DNA from: an uncultured Solibacteraceae bacterium
GTDB lineage: Bacteria > Acidobacteriota > Terriglobia > Bryobacterales > Bryobacteraceae
Reading direction: 5' to 3'
NCBI GenBank assembly: GCA_964478455.1
Contig: CAYZJD010000003.1
Location: forward strand, 1-37,247
DNA length: 37,247 bases
This document shows, piece after piece, positions 4,532 to 23,358 of this stretch. A model generated the notes under the pieces. It saw nothing but the letters and a program-made list of their open reading frames with translations. It ran no database searches and was not told the DNA's origin. Position 1 is the first letter of the stretch. Each line of letters opens with the position of its first letter. A program made the translations under genes and the position numbers.

Positions 4532-5125
4532 TTACGAAGAAAGATAGATGAACAGCAGTAAGAGCGCCGCAAAACCGATCGCGGCCAGGAACCATTCCAT
4601 TCCCGTGAAGCTACCCAGAAACTCTGTAACTGGCGCCAGGGGAGACTTCCGCGCCGGCGCCTCCGGCGCCGGAGCCGCTTCAATTACTTCTGCCGGCGCT
4701 GCCTGGCGCGCCGCCGCCGGCGCGCCGACGATCTCCGTCGCCGCGCCACCGGCGCCCGCAAGCTGCAACCGCATCTCATAACCCGGCACCTCAAGAGTGT
4801 CGCCGGGCTGGACACGACGCTTCTCCCCCCGCGTGAGCCGCCCGCCGTTCACCCAGCTTCCATTACTGCTTTGATCAATGGCGTAAAGATCGCTTCCCTC
4901 CAACTGAAGCACAAGGTGCTCCCGTGACAGCGACGAGCCCTCGAGCGGCACTGCGCTGTCGGGGCCTCGCCCGAGCACCAGCTTCCCATCCACGCGGCAA
5001 CGGTGTTCCTTCACCGCGCCGTCCGCTTTGGACCGGACCGATAGAAGAATCTCCACCGCTACTTCAACATCCTTTCCAGGCACCGCTCCAATTGCCGGCG
5101 AATCATGGGGTCGCCTCCCATCCAA
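4532..5125 (-). CDS. FHA-domain protein with extreme C-terminal transmembrane anchor (possible minimal SctD-like component)
   Basis: FHA signature LVLGRGPDSAVPLEGSSLSREHLVLQLEGSDLYAIDQSSNGSWVNGGRL...GDTLEVPGYEMRL, followed by an Ala/Pro-rich linker. The protein ends in the hydrophobic helix WFLAAIGFAALLLLFIYLSS. The annotated ATG overlaps the upstream ORF by 67 nt. An in-frame GTG at 5054-5056, 2 nt after that ORF's stop, is an alternative start. Confidence 0.7.
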   Translation of the reverse strand: MDGRRPHDSPAIGAVPGKDVEVAVEILLSVRSKADGAVKEHRCRVDGKLVLGRGPDSAVPLEGSSLSREHLVLQLEGSDLYAIDQSSNGSWVNGGRLTRGEKRRVQPGDTLEVPGYEMRLQLAGAGGAATEIVGAPAAARQAAPAEVIEAAPAPEAPARKSPLAPVTEFLGSFTGMEWFLAAIGFAALLLLFIYLSS

Positions 5126-5421
5126 TCGATCAGGAACTTCCTCGCGGCATCAGGCACGGCGCCCAAGACCGGGAAACTCTCGATCATTTCGCTTAGCGAC
5201 GAGCGGATCATTGTTTCTCGTTTCACCGGATCGGCGAGGTCGGCTCGCGTGCATTGGGCAGCGATGCCTGGCAGCGGGACCGCACCCTGTCGCGGCACGC
5301 CAAGCGCCAGCGGTTCGCTCCTGGAAGGCTCGAATCTCCGCCCCGGTTTCCCGGCGGCTTCAGCAGGCTCCCCGGTCGGGCCCAGGGGCGGCTTGCCGAA
5401 GCCTGGAGGCTTGATCTGCAT
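5059..5421 (-). CDS. Hypothetical protein (120 aa)
   Basis: ORF in the operon gap, starting 15 nt after the TPR gene stop. The Pro/Gly-rich N-terminal half looks poorly coding, while the C-terminal half is helical (SSLSEMIESFPVLGAVPDAARKFLIDWMGGDPMIRRQLERCLERMLK). No clear Shine-Dalgarno sequence and no recognisable motif. Confidence 0.35.
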   Translation of the reverse strand: MQIKPPGFGKPPLGPTGEPAEAAGKPGRRFEPSRSEPLALGVPRQGAVPLPGIAAQCTRADLADPVKRETMIRSSLSEMIESFPVLGAVPDAARKFLIDWMGGDPMIRRQLERCLERMLK

Positions 5422-5436
5422 GCGTACCCGAGGTAA

Positions 5437-5835
5437 TTACTTGAACTGCACCACGTCCGTCAATTCCAGCAGGCTCCGCGCCATCTTGCCGGCATCCCCT
5501 TTCGGGTCGAGTTCCGTCGCTTTCTTCAGGTTCTTCCGCGCCGCTTCCTTGTCCATTTGAAACAGGCAAGCCTCGCCGAGATGCGCGTATGCGTAAGCGC
5601 TCTTCGGGTTCAACTCCAGCGCCCTCCTGTAATGCTTCACGGCCGCCGGGAAGTCCCCCTCGTGGAAGCTGACCGTTCCCAAGGCGACCTCCGCCACCTC
5701 GTTCTTCGGCAGCAGCGCCCGGACCCCGCGAAACACCTCCCGGGCCTCCTGGAACTTCTTCGCATCCCGATAGATGAACCCCGCCTCCATCAGCAGTGTC
5801 AGTTCCTCACTACTTGGCGCAACGTTCCAGCTCAT
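5437..5835 (-). CDS. Small TPR protein, T3SS chaperone-like (YscG/SctG or class II chaperone analog)
   Basis: 132 aa composed almost entirely of TPR-like repeats (FQEAREVFRGVRALLPKNEVAEVALGTVSFHEGDFPAAVKHYRRALELNPKSAYAYAHLGEA). Sits directly after the needle-like 115-aa gene. Confidence 0.65.
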   Translation of the reverse strand: MSWNVAPSSEELTLLMEAGFIYRDAKKFQEAREVFRGVRALLPKNEVAEVALGTVSFHEGDFPAAVKHYRRALELNPKSAYAYAHLGEACLFQMDKEAARKNLKKATELDPKGDAGKMARSLLELTDVVQFK

Positions 5836-5919
5836 CGTGTCAACTCCTCTTGCCGCTCCCTGGCGGCACGCCTCCGCAGCCCGGCCTTCCTTCGCGCGCG
5901 CCGGCGCGGTTACCTGCGG

Positions 5920-6267
5920 TTACCTGATGTTTCGAATCGAGGACATGGCCGCGTCGTGGCGCGCCTTCATCACGTTCGACGCCGTCTCGAATGCCCGTGT
6001 CTCCATCTGCATCTGACGCTGTAATTCCAGGAATTGCGAGCTCTCGCCCAGCAATCCGGTGGAGCCGAGCGCTCCCCCGCCGCCGATGAACTTGCCTACC
6101 ACCGAACCGAGCCCCGGAGCGAAGATGTTGGCCGCCCCTCCGGCGACCGCGCCCAGGAACCGCCGGAAACCGCTCGGTTTCTTCGCGTTATCCACGTACT
6201 TCAGGATGTCATCGATGCTGTAATTCGGAGTCTGCGCCGCTCCGAGTCCTCTTAATACCGTCGACAT
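5920..6267 (-). CDS. Gly-rich small protein with needle-protein-like C-terminal helix (SctF-like candidate)
   Basis: 115 aa. Central Gly-zipper segment (GAVAGGAANIFAPGLGSVVGKFIGGGGALGSTGLLG). The C-terminus ETASNVMKARHDAAMSSIRNIR follows the pattern of PrgI/YscF ends (..SN.V K...D....I.N.R, as I recall those sequences). Strong SD AAGGAGAGGAG upstream. Confidence 0.6.
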   Translation of the reverse strand: MSTVLRGLGAAQTPNYSIDDILKYVDNAKKPSGFRRFLGAVAGGAANIFAPGLGSVVGKFIGGGGALGSTGLLGESSQFLELQRQMQMETRAFETASNVMKARHDAAMSSIRNIR

Positions 6268-21907: not shown

Positions 21908-21978
21908 GTTCTCCTCTCCCGATGAGGACGCCGGGCCCGGCTCTTCCGACACATCCGAAACCGGCCCGCGCGAGGCAC

Positions 21979-22527
21979 TTATACCTGCGTCTGTAGAATG
22001 GATTTAATTCCGGAATTGACCTGCTCCACCACCTTGCTCACCAACTCGATGTTCTGTGTCATCTGGTAAATCTGCATCTGTACTTTCAGTAAGTCGCGAG
22101 GGTTGTTCGTTCCGGCGAGACCGTTGACTAATTCTCCCGTCGCCTTGAAGTTCGCCTCGATGGTGTTCAGCCGCTGCCGGATCGGATCGAACGCCGATGA
22201 CTTCGGGAGGGCATTCACCTGGCGGGTCAGCCCGTCCATCCTCACCTGCGTGCGCTTCATGTCCACCTTGAACACTTCTCGCGGCGACCGCGAGCGCCCC
22301 GCCTGCATCCGTCTCCGCAGATCGCTTTCCAGGACCCGCGTCTGCTGGGCGGAAACTTGCGTGACCTGCGGAGGGAGATTGTAGGGCACGTTCAGACGGT
22401 CGTCCTGAAGGTTGCTCCGGATCTGGTCGAACTTTGACGGCCCCCCCTTCTCCGTCGCGGCCGTCCCGAAGTCCTGCTTCGGGGTGATCGCCCTCACAGC
22501 GCCTTTGCTGATGATCGGATCCGCCAT
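21979..22527 (-). CDS. sctI: SctI-like inner rod protein (YscI/PrgJ family), enlarged
   Basis: 182 aa. The C-terminus DLLKVQMQIYQMTQNIELVSKVVEQVNSGIKSILQTQV aligns by eye with the YscI C-terminus as I recall it (DLMLMQWSLIRITIQEELIAKTAGRMSQNVETL). Sits directly upstream of sctJ, as in ysc/psc loci. Confidence 0.6.
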   Translation of the reverse strand: MADPIISKGAVRAITPKQDFGTAATEKGGPSKFDQIRSNLQDDRLNVPYNLPPQVTQVSAQQTRVLESDLRRRMQAGRSRSPREVFKVDMKRTQVRMDGLTRQVNALPKSSAFDPIRQRLNTIEANFKATGELVNGLAGTNNPRDLLKVQMQIYQMTQNIELVSKVVEQVNSGIKSILQTQV

Positions 22528-22635
22528 ACTCCCCTGCCTGGGCTATACTAGCGCCCGCTCCCGCGGGCGTCCGGCGTCGTCATTCCTGGCCGGCGCTGGC
22601 CGCACAACTGTCCCCCGGCTAGCGGTCGTCTCCAA

Positions 22636-22662
22636 TTATCGGCCCACCCGGAGCAAAGTTTC
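22636..22662 (-). promoter_or_regulatory. Sigma-28 (FliA)-type promoter reading into sctI
   Basis: Minus strand reads GAAACTTT-N11-GCCGATAA against the enterobacterial consensus TAAAGTTT-N11-GCCGATAA. The -10 element matches 8/8 and the extended -35 matches 6/8, with exact spacing. The -10 overlaps the last codons and the TAA stop of the FliA-like gene. The sctI ATG lies about 100 nt downstream. Confidence 0.6.
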
Positions 22663-23358
22663 CTGCCTCGCCGCCTGCGGCTCTCCTGCCGGCTGTTCGA
22701 GCCGATCCCGGATCATGTCCAGGCTCTTGGCATGGAGGCGCGACACCCACGACTTCGACAATCCCAGCTTCTGCCCGATTTCTTCCAGGCTCAGATCCTG
22801 AAAGTAGTAGCCCTCCACCACCAGCCGGTTCTTTTCCGGCAGTTGCGCCAGCGCTCCCCGCACCCTTCGCCGCGCCTCCTCGCTCAGCAACAGGTGCTCC
22901 GGCGAAAGCTCCTTTGGCTCGGCGATCTCTTGCGCCATCCCCTCCAGGGTCAGCAAATAGCAGCTCAACACCGAGCCCGCCATATTCTGGAGTTCCTGGA
23001 ACTCCTCCGCCGCGCCTCCCGCCGAAGCCGCGCCGGAGGAATAGTCCTTCATGAATTCGTTGGCGGCGGCCTCGAACCGGTATTGCTGGTACAGGGTTTT
23101 CGGAAACCAGGCCGTCTTCCGGAGCCAGTCGTAGACCGCACCTCGAATCCGGTAGTAGGCGTAGGTCTTGAATTGCGCCCCGTGCGCCGGATCGAAGCTT
23201 GATGCGGCCTCCACCAGCCCCAGTTCCGCCGCGGCCTCCAGGTCCTTCTTCTCGATGCCCGGCGGCACCGTGCGGAGTACCTGCGCCGCAATTGCGTGCG
23301 CGTAACCGCGATGCGTGTCGATCAGGCGGTCCGCATCCTGCTTAGGCGCCCATCCCAT
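22636..23358 (-). CDS. fliA: Group 3 sigma factor, FliA/WhiG (sigma-28) family
   Basis: 240 aa. Region 2 (FKTYAYYRIRGAVYDWLR) and region 4 HTH (LSLEEIGQKLGLSKSWVSRLHAKSLDMIR) are typical of FliA-type sigmas. No region 1. Confidence 0.85.
   Translation of the reverse strand: MGWAPKQDADRLIDTHRGYAHAIAAQVLRTVPPGIEKKDLEAAAELGLVEAASSFDPAHGAQFKTYAYYRIRGAVYDWLRKTAWFPKTLYQQYRFEAAANEFMKDYSSGAASAGGAAEEFQELQNMAGSVLSCYLLTLEGMAQEIAEPKELSPEHLLLSEEARRRVRGALAQLPEKNRLVVEGYYFQDLSLEEIGQKLGLSKSWVSRLHAKSLDMIRDRLEQPAGEPQAARQETLLRVGR

Follow-up and report, generated by a model that had tools for sequence, protein, structure and literature searches.

The described systems closest to the one reported here are the secretin-less type III secretion systems (T3SS) of Myxococcus. 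In the survey of Abby and Rocha (2012; PMC3459982), the Myxo group, which has no secretin, SctF, tip or translocon, lies at the base of the non-flagellar T3SS; non-flagellar systems were recorded only in Proteobacteria, Chlamydiae and Verrucomicrobia, and the Acidobacteria had flagella only. The needleless system of Myxococcus xanthus, named T3SS* (mxan_2434-2464; PMC12075869, PMC10849154), supports prey lysis together with a Tad-like (Kil) pilus, and in the literature the co-occurrence of T3SS* and Kil is restricted to Cystobacterineae. A 2025 study (PMC12248157) describes FliO in non-flagellar T3SS of Myxococcota and some Pseudomonadota and does not report it for Acidobacteriota. LysM domains fused to FliO in some Myxococcota were noted in a 2025 study. 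Here we analyse a secretin-less T3SS gene cluster in DNA of an uncultured Solibacteraceae bacterium from the phylum Acidobacteriota (assembly GCA_964478455.1, contig CAYZJD010000003.1, positions 1 to 37,247). This whole stretch of 37 kb, with a G+C content of 63-69%, is called the window below. We consider it probable that the cluster encodes a functional non-flagellar T3SS belonging to a conserved acidobacterial family, in which a dedicated secretin was never acquired or is not used.

The genes of the window, called by their third-position G+C content (GC3), form an uninterrupted minus-strand array from its left end to about 30 kb, beyond which housekeeping genes lie on the plus strand. The T3SS cluster occupies positions 4532-23358 of the minus strand, with a sigma factor gene first and a gene for a tail-anchored FHA protein last, and the spacing between its genes is only -68 to +142 nt, with several overlaps of 1-4 nt. 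A preliminary description, made from the letters alone, had proposed a single closely packed minus-strand array with a ysc-like order, encoding SctR, S, T, U and V, SctL, N and O, SctQ, SctP, SctJ and SctI. The array was confirmed by gene calling and spacing, all of these assignments were reproduced by profile searches (Pfam for all 40 gene-like open reading frames (ORFs) of the window, NCBIfam for the core ORFs), and the gene order indeed resembles the I-J-K-L and N-O-P-Q-R-S-T-U runs of Yersinia pCD1. Set against the TXSScan-style core of a non-flagellar T3SS (sctC, J, N, Q, R, S, T, U and V), the locus has an export gate, an ATPase complex, SctQ, and SctJ instead of FliF. In the direction of transcription, the genes of the cluster and the kinase gene that precedes it are:

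23494-26019, minus strand, receptor Ser/Thr kinase with FGE-sulfatase-like domain (Pfam Pkinase E=2.4e-62, FGE-sulfatase E=2e-48)
22636-23358, minus strand, sigma factor of the FliA/WhiG family (sigma-28 type), first gene of the conserved cluster (Pfam Sigma70_r2/r4)
21979-22527, minus strand, SctI-like inner-rod protein, 182 aa (Pfam T3SS_basalb_I)
21086-21952, minus strand, SctJ inner-membrane ring lipoprotein (NCBIfam SctJ; Pfam YscJ_FliF)
20784-21089, minus strand, small conserved protein of 101 aa between sctJ and sctL, the SctK position (no family match)
20180-20809, minus strand, SctL stator (NCBIfam SctL; Pfam FliH)
18852-20180, minus strand, SctN ATPase (Pfam ATP-synt_ab and T3SS_ATPase_C)
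18332-18829, minus strand, SctO stalk (Pfam YscO-like, E=7.5e-21)
17622-18335, minus strand, SctP/FliK-type length-control (T3S4) ruler, 237 aa (Pfam Flg_hook, HpaP)
16124-17689, minus strand, FHA-SctQ fusion (Pfam FHA, Yop-YscD_cpl, FliMN_C)
15714-16127, minus strand, FliO homologue (Pfam FliO)
14825-15700, minus strand, SctR (NCBIfam yscR)
14545-14811, minus strand, SctS (Pfam Bac_export_3)
13705-14535, minus strand, SctT (Pfam Bac_export_1)
12780-13622, minus strand, 280-aa inserted gene between sctT and sctU (weak LysM match)
11628-12689, minus strand, SctU switch protein (Pfam Bac_export_2, E=8e-112)
11195-11617, minus strand, conserved 140-aa protein, kept across Terriglobia loci (no Pfam or NCBIfam match)
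10785-11192, minus strand, TPR chaperone 3 (Pfam TPR; NCBIfam LcrH_SycD and SctY below cut-off)
10025-10696, minus strand, needle-family paralogue of 223 aa (C-terminal helix alignment; family profile)
9506-10006, minus strand, TPR chaperone 2, LcrH/SycD type (class II, translocator-chaperone; BLASTP, phmmer, NCBIfam)
8950-9417, minus strand, needle-family paralogue of 155 aa (C-terminal helix alignment; family profile)
6747-8912, minus strand, SctV export gate (Pfam FHIPEP, E=3e-233)
6317-6604, minus strand, conserved helical protein g09, 95 aa, in the position of YscE, the needle co-chaperone (Terriglobia/Bryobacterales conservation)
5920-6267, minus strand, SctF-like needle-family protein, 115 aa, with an internal glycine-zipper segment (C-terminal motif, PDB profile match)
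5437-5835, minus strand, TPR chaperone 1, in the YscG/CdsG position (Pfam TPR, HrpB1_HrpK E=3e-5)
5059-5421, minus strand, conserved 120-aa protein, kept across Terriglobia loci (no family match)
4532-5125, minus strand, tail-anchored FHA protein (likely product 174 aa, 4532-5056; Pfam FHA, transmembrane helix)

To characterize the export apparatus, we compared its NCBIfam scores with the cut-offs of the injectisome and flagellar models. SctV passes the SctV model (781.5 bits, cut-off 692) and stays below FlhA (683.7 bits, cut-off 772.1); among solved structures, LcrD-type SctV scores highest (588 bits), followed by SsaV (447) and FlhA (418). SctR passes yscR (224.1 bits, cut-off 208.6) and misses FliP (208.9 bits, cut-off 217.45); its N-terminus is signal-peptide-like (MKNLFAVCGLLLLARTASA), and it carries a periplasmic insertion of about 100 aa rich in Pro, Ala and Gln. 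SctU lies just under the SctU cut-off (356.7 bits, cut-off 358) and further under that of FlhB (324.5 bits, cut-off 349.25), with its autocleavage motif NPTH intact at residue 267. The flagellar equivalog tests hence failed for FlhA, FlhB and FliP alike. SctS is above both the FliQ and the SctS cut-offs, with the higher score for FliQ, and SctT is marginally below both FliR and SctT, with a slightly better score for FliR. SctN exceeds the cut-offs of both SctN and FliI_clade2, and its best relatives in the PDB are injectisome ATPases (444 bits vs 367 for FliI). SctJ (166.5 bits, cut-off 161.95) has the lipobox LTGC and a C-terminal transmembrane helix (229-254), and its start is likely M16, giving 21086-21907. 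SctL scores 95.1 bits (cut-off 78.7). The ruler matches Flg_hook (E=6e-12) and HpaP (E=5e-7) in Pfam and the yscP domain in NCBIfam (E=5.6e-5), and FliO, with one transmembrane helix, is recognised by Pfam (E=4.7e-13) and lies just under the NCBIfam cut-off (54.6 bits, cut-off 55.25). By position alone, the 101-aa protein, which has orthologues in most Terriglobia loci, would be SctK. Of the relatives, only the nearest ones in Bryobacterales (L007, L029 and L075) have the 280-aa gene between sctT and sctU, which makes it an apparent lineage-specific insertion.

Two neighbour-joining trees, neither rooted by an outgroup, place the cluster relative to the flagellum. The SctV tree (bootstrapped; 57 taxa, 623 columns) combined representatives drawn at 50% identity from the entire protein universe with reference loci from plasmids. 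In it a non-flagellar clade stands apart from the FlhA sequences with 100% bootstrap, and contains the canonical Ysc, Mxi-Spa, Hrp2 and Rhizobiales-like families, a Terriglobia/Bryobacterales group that includes the window, a Myxococcota group (Labilithrix, Polyangiaceae) and a Pyrinomonadaceae/Schekmanbacteria group. The window SctV falls outside the canonical injectisome families, and the branching order inside the clade is without resolution. In the second tree, from concatenated SctR, SctT and SctU (810 columns), the flagellar loci form a group with 100% bootstrap, the canonical injectisomes with 93%, and Acidobacteria plus Eisenbacteria with 99%; the last of these joins Myxococcales and Bradymonadales loci from metagenome-assembled genomes (MAGs) only weakly (75%). 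Since the SctV clade is separate from FlhA and the flagellar SctR+T+U clan excludes the window, each with full bootstrap support, the core does not nest within the flagella.

These trees bear directly on the reading of the locus as a divergent or partial flagellar export system whose other parts are encoded elsewhere or, in a variant, as a nanotube platform derived from the flagellar core. FliO, the SctR signal peptide and the sigma-28-type sigma factor with its promoter would fit such a system, as would the slightly higher scores of SctS and SctT for FliQ and FliR and the match of SctN to FliI_clade2. SctR, SctT and SctU are also 34-38% identical to flagellar homologues and 27-33% to canonical injectisomes; this difference we attribute to the canonical injectisome proteins, which sit on far longer branches. 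Set against it are the SctV scores and the fully supported non-flagellar SctV clade, a lipoprotein SctJ in place of FliF, the presence of SctI, SctL, a YscO-like protein and LcrH-, CdsG- and SctY-like chaperones, and the absence of FliG, a FliM-length switch protein, rod, hook and Mot genes from the cluster of any relative. We therefore regard such a flagellar system as very improbable. FliO and sigma-28 regulation are shared with the flagellum, yet they are insufficient for flagellar membership. The mixture of flagellar-type traits (FliO, the SctR signal peptide, and a FliA-type sigma factor with its promoter) and injectisome-type traits (the SctJ lipoprotein, an SctI-like protein, needle-like proteins and TPR chaperones) that had been noticed earlier is upheld, the former by profiles and a conserved promoter motif and the latter by profile and motif evidence.

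We then considered the components that are missing. A secretin profile hidden Markov model (HMM), trained on YscC, MxiD and HrcC, recovered its three training secretins and also the untrained RhcC1/2 of a Paracoccus plasmid, the Tad-derived split secretin of this plasmid matching at E=1.6e-18 and 4.4e-9. Run on the six-frame translation of the window and on 80 related loci, the same model was blank, and Pfam Secretin matched none of the 40 window ORFs. In about 45 acidobacterial loci with conserved synteny, the model likewise detected no secretin in the 10 kb around the cluster. No SctW/HrpJ/TyeA gatekeeper or translocator was matched by Pfam among the window ORFs, and phmmer searches of the window with YscC, YscD, YopN, MxiC, YopB/D, IpaB/C, LcrV and IpaD returned only noise (E>0.05). 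SctD periplasmic ring domains were not detected in the window by Pfam, and the YscD and MxiG queries gave no periplasmic match. Likewise, Pfam matched no flagellar rod/hook (Flg), FliF-length, FliG or Mot families among these ORFs, and neither the cluster, the window nor the syntenic loci contain FliF, FliG, FliE, FlgB/C rod, hook, Mot or FliM-length switch genes. The preliminary description was thus correct in listing secretin, SctW and translocators as absent, which holds for the window and for the roughly 45 syntenic loci with their 10-kb flanks, and in finding no flagellar rod, hook, FliF or FliG. Its statement that SctD is lacking was right for a ring-type protein with a periplasmic domain and needs amendment in one respect: an SctD remnant consisting of an FHA domain and a C-terminal transmembrane helix appears to be present at 4532-5056/5125.

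This last protein and SctQ show how the FHA domains are distributed in the cluster. The tail-anchored protein matches FHA (Pfam E=1.6e-13) and, below cut-off, Yop-YscD_cpl (E=1.9e-6). Its single transmembrane helix (172-197) forms the C-terminus, so that no periplasmic part remains. Relatives likewise end the cluster with this gene, and in them the predicted product has 174-175 aa. The protein is a predicted SctD remnant, equivalent to the cytoplasmic domain and transmembrane helix. The second FHA domain is fused to SctQ (Pfam FHA E=1.3e-17, FliMN_C E=1.9e-15; NCBIfam SctQ 95.8 bits, cut-off 100.8, with the flagellar cut-off also narrowly missed) and is itself of the SctD-cytoplasmic type (Yop-YscD_cpl 38.3 bits, gathering cut-off 33.2), meaning that an SctD-type FHA domain is joined to the SctQ/FliN SpoA domain, whereas canonical systems carry FHA on SctD. 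The fusion is found in all 30 Terriglobia/Bryobacterales loci that hold the gene, three of them with the ORF split in two.

An ordinary injectisome would also look incomplete here if the genes for its secretin, SctD ring, gatekeeper and translocon lay at another locus. The cluster has eight of the nine core Sct genes, scattered non-flagellar T3SS loci do exist (for example in Chlamydiales), and our secretin scans covered the window and the fetched loci as opposed to whole genomes. A secretin, SctD or SctW block just outside the window is excluded as far as the relatives reach: none adjoins the cluster here or in loci that extend farther, including a 28-kb contig of a strain with a 99%-identical SctV, which prolongs the left side and contributes a CsgG-like lipoprotein and a second caspase, and no secretin. 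With no secretin at up to 10 kb from the cluster in about 45 acidobacterial genomes, an SctD homologue conserved in a truncated, tail-anchored form that lacks the periplasmic secretin-docking domain, an SctV outside the canonical secretin-bearing families, and flagellar-type traits retained, we judge a split injectisome improbable.

To see how far the cluster extends beyond this strain, we scanned one genome per GTDB species for SctR, which gave 80 loci. They come from Solibacteraceae (best match, 72% identity), Bryobacteraceae, many Terriglobia, Pyrinomonadaceae and Candidatus Eisenbacteria, and further include Myxococcales and Bradymonadales MAGs (44-47%) and true flagellar loci. The same order of 22-24 genes was found in about 45 Acidobacteriota loci, whose SctR/T/U are 53-62% identical to those of the window, and the cluster is present in the cultured strains Edaphobacter modestus DSM 18101 and Silvibacterium bohemicum S15. 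In Terriglobia/Bryobacterales the conserved order reads sigma-SctI-SctJ-x-SctL-N-O-P-(FHA)SctQ-FliO-R-S-T-U-x-TPR-(needle-like)-TPR-SctV-x-needle-like-TPR-x-FHA/TM (TM, transmembrane helix); in Pyrinomonadaceae and Candidatus Eisenbacteria the cluster is rearranged. The sigma factor gene upstream of sctI is kept in most Terriglobia/Bryobacterales loci and in Eisenbacteria. SctV homologues number thousands at about 70% identity, the named ones belonging to Terriglobales and Bryobacteraceae. Outside this group the Bradymonadales/Myxococcales MAG loci have fliO-sctRSTU only, followed by unrelated genes, and the Labilithrix/Polyangiaceae lineage has sctV alone, apart from other T3SS genes. Judged by this gene content and order, the cluster is a widespread and conserved acidobacterial T3SS family and not a singular oddity.

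The same conservation speaks to the idea of a decaying relic without function. Myxococcus loci were once annotated in this way, and several expected components are missing here as well. All ORFs are intact with a strong GC3 coding signal, catalytic and switch motifs are retained, and order, spacing and promoter are conserved across Acidobacteriota classes and Eisenbacteria, so that we find a relic hardly credible, the least probable of the explanations considered. Intact ORFs and motifs make decay unlikely, and a functional, regulated T3SS is probably what the cluster encodes.

A full-text literature search (subscription-only papers were outside its reach) turned up no account of a non-flagellar T3SS in Acidobacteria, and the main comparative-genomics papers on Acidobacteria that were checked do not mention type III secretion. 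The NCBI annotation pipeline labels individual core genes as Sct subunits in acidobacterial MAGs; the genes are therefore annotated, though we found no paper describing the system. The earlier proposal that the combination is not a described family accordingly survives in part. No describing paper was found, but the family is widespread and of the same evolutionary grade as the Myxococcus systems.

We next examined whether the cluster is needleless. Four proteins of the window have in common a C-terminal helix of about 45 residues, and an HMM of this helix, iterated over the fetched loci, separates two subfamilies. The first ends in ...ILQTQV, an ending common to 28 orthologues, and is always encoded immediately upstream of sctJ, the SctI position; it matches T3SS_basalb_I (Pfam E=1.6e-7, 32.1 bits, cut-off 32.4), T3SS_needle_F (E=2.6e-4) and YscI (phmmer E=7e-4). 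The second ends in ...AIRNI(R/N/S) or ...AISAIR, with the conserved motif S-N-x-x-K-x-x-H-D-A-x-M-x-x-I-x-N-I-R. Its members in Pyrinomonadaceae are 71-73 aa long, the canonical size of a needle subunit, and in Terriglobia/Bryobacterales a glycine-zipper insertion or an N-terminal extension is added. The best match of the subfamily profile in the whole PDB is the needle C-terminal chain of the needle-chaperone complex 7y6c (E=0.049). The conserved motif is similar to the end of MxiH and PrgI (SNTVKVIKDVDAAIIQNFR), and the C-terminal motif of the 115-aa protein (SNVMKARHDAAMSSIRNIR) to that of MxiH. The 223-aa paralogue has an N-terminal glycine-zipper region, a Gly-rich middle and the end ...AISAIR, and its 214-aa counterpart in locus L004 has a weak match to the needle family PF09392. 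The 155-aa paralogue also has an N-terminal glycine zipper and shares a CPPRP motif with the 223-aa protein. In both, a basic stretch, then C-P-P-R-P, and an Asn-rich segment (HKCPPRPPCISNNEY / HRCPPRPTSITNNNN) lie between zipper and C-terminal helix.

The partners of these proteins are also recognisable. The order of the 95-aa ORF (g09), the 115-aa needle-like gene (ndl115) and TPR chaperone 1 mirrors yscE-yscF-yscG, and the 140-aa protein and TPR chaperone 3 occupy the place of yscX-yscY upstream of sctV in Yersinia; going only by these positions, the 95-aa protein may be YscE-like and the 140-aa protein SctX-like. TPR chaperone 2 aligns over its full length with Yersinia LcrH (BLASTP, 24% identity over 143 aa, E=9e-12; phmmer E=8.4e-10), with IpgC at E=7.5e-6 and an NCBIfam LcrH_SycD score of 61.9 bits, below cut-off. 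TPR chaperone 3 matches LcrH_SycD (E=1.3e-12) and SctY (E=1.1e-8), and TPR chaperone 1 matches LcrH_SycD (E=1.4e-10), CdsG (E=1.8e-8) and SctY (E=3e-6), so that LcrH/SycD, SctY or CdsG rank near the top of the NCBIfam families for each of the three, below cut-off. The assignment of the Gly-rich proteins as SctF-like is moderately supported, by their motif, by the order of the genes and by weak profile matches. All 47 database homologues of the 115-aa protein are labelled hypothetical. With three SctF-like paralogues and chaperone partners, at that level of support, the needlelessness of the Myxo-type T3SS does not extend to this cluster. The ruler domain, the NPTH switch and the rod and needle families suggest that a length-controlled helical filament is built, and that by gene content the system is not needleless.

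This gene content bears on whether the cluster is a machine dependent on a partner in the manner of Myxococcus, exporting to the periplasm or to a partner base (a Tad/Kil-like pilus, or the secretin of a type II secretion system (T2SS) or type IV pilus), with the partner crossing the outer membrane. Like the Myxo systems it has no secretin, it shares FliO with the Myxococcota non-flagellar T3SS, its SctR+T+U group with Myxococcales and Bradymonadales, if weakly (75% bootstrap), and TXSScan has reported secretin-bearing Tad pili in Acidobacteria. Yet neither the window nor the conserved surroundings of the cluster contain Tad, Kil or T2SS genes, the published co-occurrence of T3SS* with Kil does not leave the Cystobacterineae, and needle-family genes with needle- and translocator-type chaperones set it apart from the published T3SS*. 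We see such dependence as a serious possibility, though on balance a doubtful one.

Regulation of the cluster was approached through its promoters. The best NCBIfam family of the sigma factor is FliA_WhiG (131.7 bits, below the cut-off of 189.6). The sigma-28 consensus is TAAAGTTT-N11-GCCGATAA, and the conserved motif of the window is close to it: AAC(G/T)TT-N11-14-CGATAA is found at the same position before sctI in at least 22 related loci. Three copies occur in the window:

22636-22662, minus strand, sigma-28-type promoter before sctI (GAAACTTTGCTCCGGGTGGGCCGATAA; conserved motif)
13650-13676, minus strand, second strict promoter match, before the 280-aa inserted gene
10767-10793, minus strand, third, slightly degenerate promoter copy, before the 223-aa needle-like gene

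A regular-expression scan of the window found the strict motif twice, each time on the coding strand, vs 0.007 expected from dinucleotide-preserving shuffles. The sctI promoter is wholly intergenic in L008, L009, L023, L032, L033 and L035, and in the window, as in other loci, its -10 element (CCGATAA) provides the stop codon of the sigma gene, which indicates that the end of the sigma ORF drifted across a fixed promoter. Given this conserved motif, the predicted transcription of the cluster by its own sigma-28-type factor is well supported by footprinting. Directly after sctV (6605-6746), a G+C-rich hairpin is followed by a T-run (GGGGCAGGCGCTTTCGCCTGCCGGGCGTTCTTTT), suggesting a putative terminator and a transcription unit of its own for the needle module (g09, the 115-aa gene and TPR chaperone 1). 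A -10-like element (CTCGATAA) stands before the 115-aa needle-like gene (6268-6316).

The receptor kinase encoded upstream combines a kinase domain, a transmembrane helix (512-541) and an extracytoplasmic FGE-sulfatase-like domain. In the same position, the Bryobacterales loci L029 and L075 have a Ser/Thr kinase with an FGE domain, L008 and L009 an FGE ORF cut by the locus edge, and L030 and L032 a kinase with no FGE domain detected; Silvibacterium has a short kinase-like gene without FGE, and its Edaphobacter counterpart gives only a sub-threshold kinase match. Two kinases follow downstream of the cluster in Terriglobales. Pyrinomonadaceae have a stand-alone FGE-sulfatase-domain protein of about 310 aa between sctN and sctP (L044:4850-5776, with equivalents in L039, L041, L043 and L052), where the cluster also embeds a PEGA and TPR protein of 448 aa. 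The association of kinase or FGE domains with the cluster is thus conserved across lineages, and because FGE is fused to the kinase in the window and stands alone within the Pyrinomonadaceae cluster, it seems that this T3SS family keeps an FGE-like domain as an accessory. The best NCBIfam match of the tail-anchored FHA protein is the TagH FHA family of type VI secretion (E=6.5e-10). Type VI secretion is controlled by threonine phosphorylation, through the kinase PpkA, the FHA protein Fha1/TagH and the phosphatase PppA. No phosphatase gene was identified in the window. In a 7-Mb Labilithrix/Polyangiaceae-like Myxococcota genome, a lone SctV gene lies beside a divergent PP2C phosphatase gene (L092:9086-11965), which hints that phospho-regulation might occur in a related Myxococcota system too.

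Put together, these observations suggest how a functional acidobacterial T3SS would work. The sigma factor would drive the structural operon and at least one needle-family gene from separate sigma-28-like promoters, and gate, ring and ATPase would assemble in the inner membrane. A short rod or needle would be polymerised from SctI and the SctF-like protein, with SctP setting the length and SctU then switching the substrate class; one may speculate that the 237-aa ruler fits a structure of roughly periplasmic length. The later substrates would be the glycine-zipper needle-family paralogues, held in the cytoplasm by a chaperone of the LcrH/SycD type, the class that serves membrane-inserting translocators. 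Assembly or firing would be gated by threonine phosphorylation, the receptor kinase with its FGE-like sensor making sites for the two FHA domains, in analogy to the PpkA-Fha1 control of type VI secretion; from gene neighbourhood and domain logic we infer this gating. By analogy with T3SS*, which acts in prey lysis with a Tad-like pilus, the most likely use would be contact-dependent interaction with other soil microbes. A bolder version, which we offer only tentatively and hold to be unlikely as a whole, is a self-sufficient, secretin-independent machine. In it, glycine-zipper needle subunits, exported after a short periplasmic needle, would make holes in the outer membrane of the cell itself or in the envelope of a neighbour, switched by kinase and FHA domains and under a private sigma-28 factor, and the cluster would be a living pre-secretin stage of the injectisome.

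Several points weigh against a functional secretin-less T3SS of this kind. All function is deduced from sequence, and no way through the outer membrane is known for a needle that lacks both secretin and SctD ring. The secretin search took in the window and the related loci and not whole genomes, so a secretin or partner machine may act in trans. The trees are neighbour-joining trees of modest sampling that leave the order inside the non-flagellar SctV clade unresolved. Pfam recognises none of the 24 members of the Gly-rich needle-like family, the iterated family HMM retrieves no YscF, MxiH, YscI or MxiI, the best PDB match of the family reaches only E=0.049, and the AlphaFold model of the 115-aa protein, with a long C-terminal helix (73-112), has a pLDDT of 61 and a pTM of 0.25. 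Finally, the link between kinase and FHA domains comes from gene neighbourhood alone, and SctQ of Pyrinomonadaceae has a FliM-like N-terminal domain instead of an FHA fusion.

The injectisome is thought to derive from the flagellum via a secretin-less intermediate, and hitherto only the Myxococcus loci, described as needleless and apparently dependent on a Tad-like pilus, stood for that stage. The present cluster has the look of a survivor from this stage, intermediate between flagellum and the injectisomes of pathogens. If true, a second and far more widespread secretin-less lineage in another phylum gives an independent view of this transition, and flagellar traits next to needle subunits, ruler, switch and translocator-type chaperones bear on what a needle was for before secretins. 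Acidobacteria belong to the most abundant bacteria of soils. Little is understood of their ecology and of the interactions between their cells, and this would be their first candidate contact-dependent secretion machine. Since two cultured type strains carry the cluster, the hypotheses are open to genetics and cryo-electron tomography. These expectations are tempered by the facts that secretin-less T3SS are already known and that the functional claims are all inferential.

The genes on either side appear to lie outside the system. Three tandem DUF4384 proteins (2108-2812, 2809-3717 and 3722-4489, minus strand) begin 42 nt from the T3SS cluster, followed by a caspase (Peptidase_C14)-TPR protein (<1-2186, minus strand); in a near-identical strain a CsgG-like/FlgT_C lipoprotein and the second caspase come next (L007:12167-18923). 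The caspase/DUF4384 tail had been counted as part of the combination, a claim we do not retain: it was seen only in the window's own strain group and is missing in other lineages. Being missing near the T3SS in other lineages, the caspase/DUF4384 genes and the TonB-dependent receptor were rejected as parts of the system, and the DUF4384/caspase module looks like a separate one, possibly conflict- or envelope-related. The CsgG-like lipoprotein was considered as an outer-membrane conduit and set aside, as it is confined to this strain group and belongs to the DUF4384/caspase module. Upstream of the kinase lie the TonB-dependent receptor (26102-28117), a Cys-rich ORF of 165 aa (28216-28713) and a protein of 376 aa that carries a twin-arginine signal (28729-29859), none of them conserved with the T3SS. 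They are followed by an ORF of 274 aa with a C-terminal HepT-like ribonuclease domain (29910-30734), in which a HepT/MntA toxin-antitoxin pair has probably been read as a single frame. This ORF marks the boundary between the T3SS side and the housekeeping genes (lpdA, lipB, an acyl-CoA-synthetase-like gene and nnrD/yjeF).

How, then, does the cluster compare with known systems? Like the Myxo-type T3SS and T3SS*, it has no secretin, tip, translocon or flagellar rod, hook and motor genes; both have an export gate, ATPase, SctJ, SctI and in-cluster FliO, occur in soil bacteria not known as pathogens of eukaryotes, and are early or intermediate between flagellar and canonical systems. They differ in hosts (Acidobacteriota and Eisenbacteria here, not the Cystobacterineae within Myxococcales), in the SctF-like genes, YscE/G-position partners and LcrH-type chaperone of the present cluster, where the Myxo group is described as lacking SctF, and in its FHA-SctQ fusion and an SctD reduced to an FHA domain and transmembrane helix. 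A dedicated sigma-28-type factor with a conserved promoter is a further difference, as is the single compact locus, since genes are scattered in the fetched Myxococcota loci. The acidobacterial system was set apart from the Cystobacterineae T3SS by published descriptions and not by sequence comparison.

With the Ysc system (Yersinia pCD1, L088) the cluster shares a gene order resembling I-J-K-L and N-O-P-Q-R-S-T-U, an E-F-G-like needle module, an X-Y-V-like module, and an SctV nearest to LcrD among solved structures (588 bits). It differs in having no YscC, YscW pilotin, YscD periplasmic ring, YopN/TyeA, LcrV tip or YopB/D, in possessing FliO and an SctR signal peptide, and in an SctR/T/U identity of 33%. 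Flagellum-like are FliO, the FliP-like signal peptide, the FliK-type ruler domain and the sigma-28-family factor, with a TAAAGTTT-N11-GCCGATAA-like promoter before structural and filament-like genes. In contrast to the flagellum there are no FliF, FliG, FliE, FlgB-G, hook, flagellin or Mot genes, SctV is below the FlhA equivalog cut-off, and SctJ, SctI, SctL and a YscO-like protein stand in their place. The likeness to PpkA-Fha1 of type VI secretion is a regulatory analogy only: in both, a membrane receptor Ser/Thr kinase accompanies a machine with FHA scaffold proteins, but the secretion machine is another, the present FHA domains belong to the SctD-cytoplasmic type, and the link is one of neighbourhood. 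Altogether, the system is a predicted secretin-less non-flagellar T3SS of the kind known from Myxococcus. We do not file it in the Myxo family, because by gene content it is not needleless, it belongs to another phylum, and its monophyly with the Cystobacterineae loci would be conjecture. What sets it apart is that a single locus unites traits retained from the flagellum with needle and chaperone modules, FHA fusions and a private sigma-28 control.

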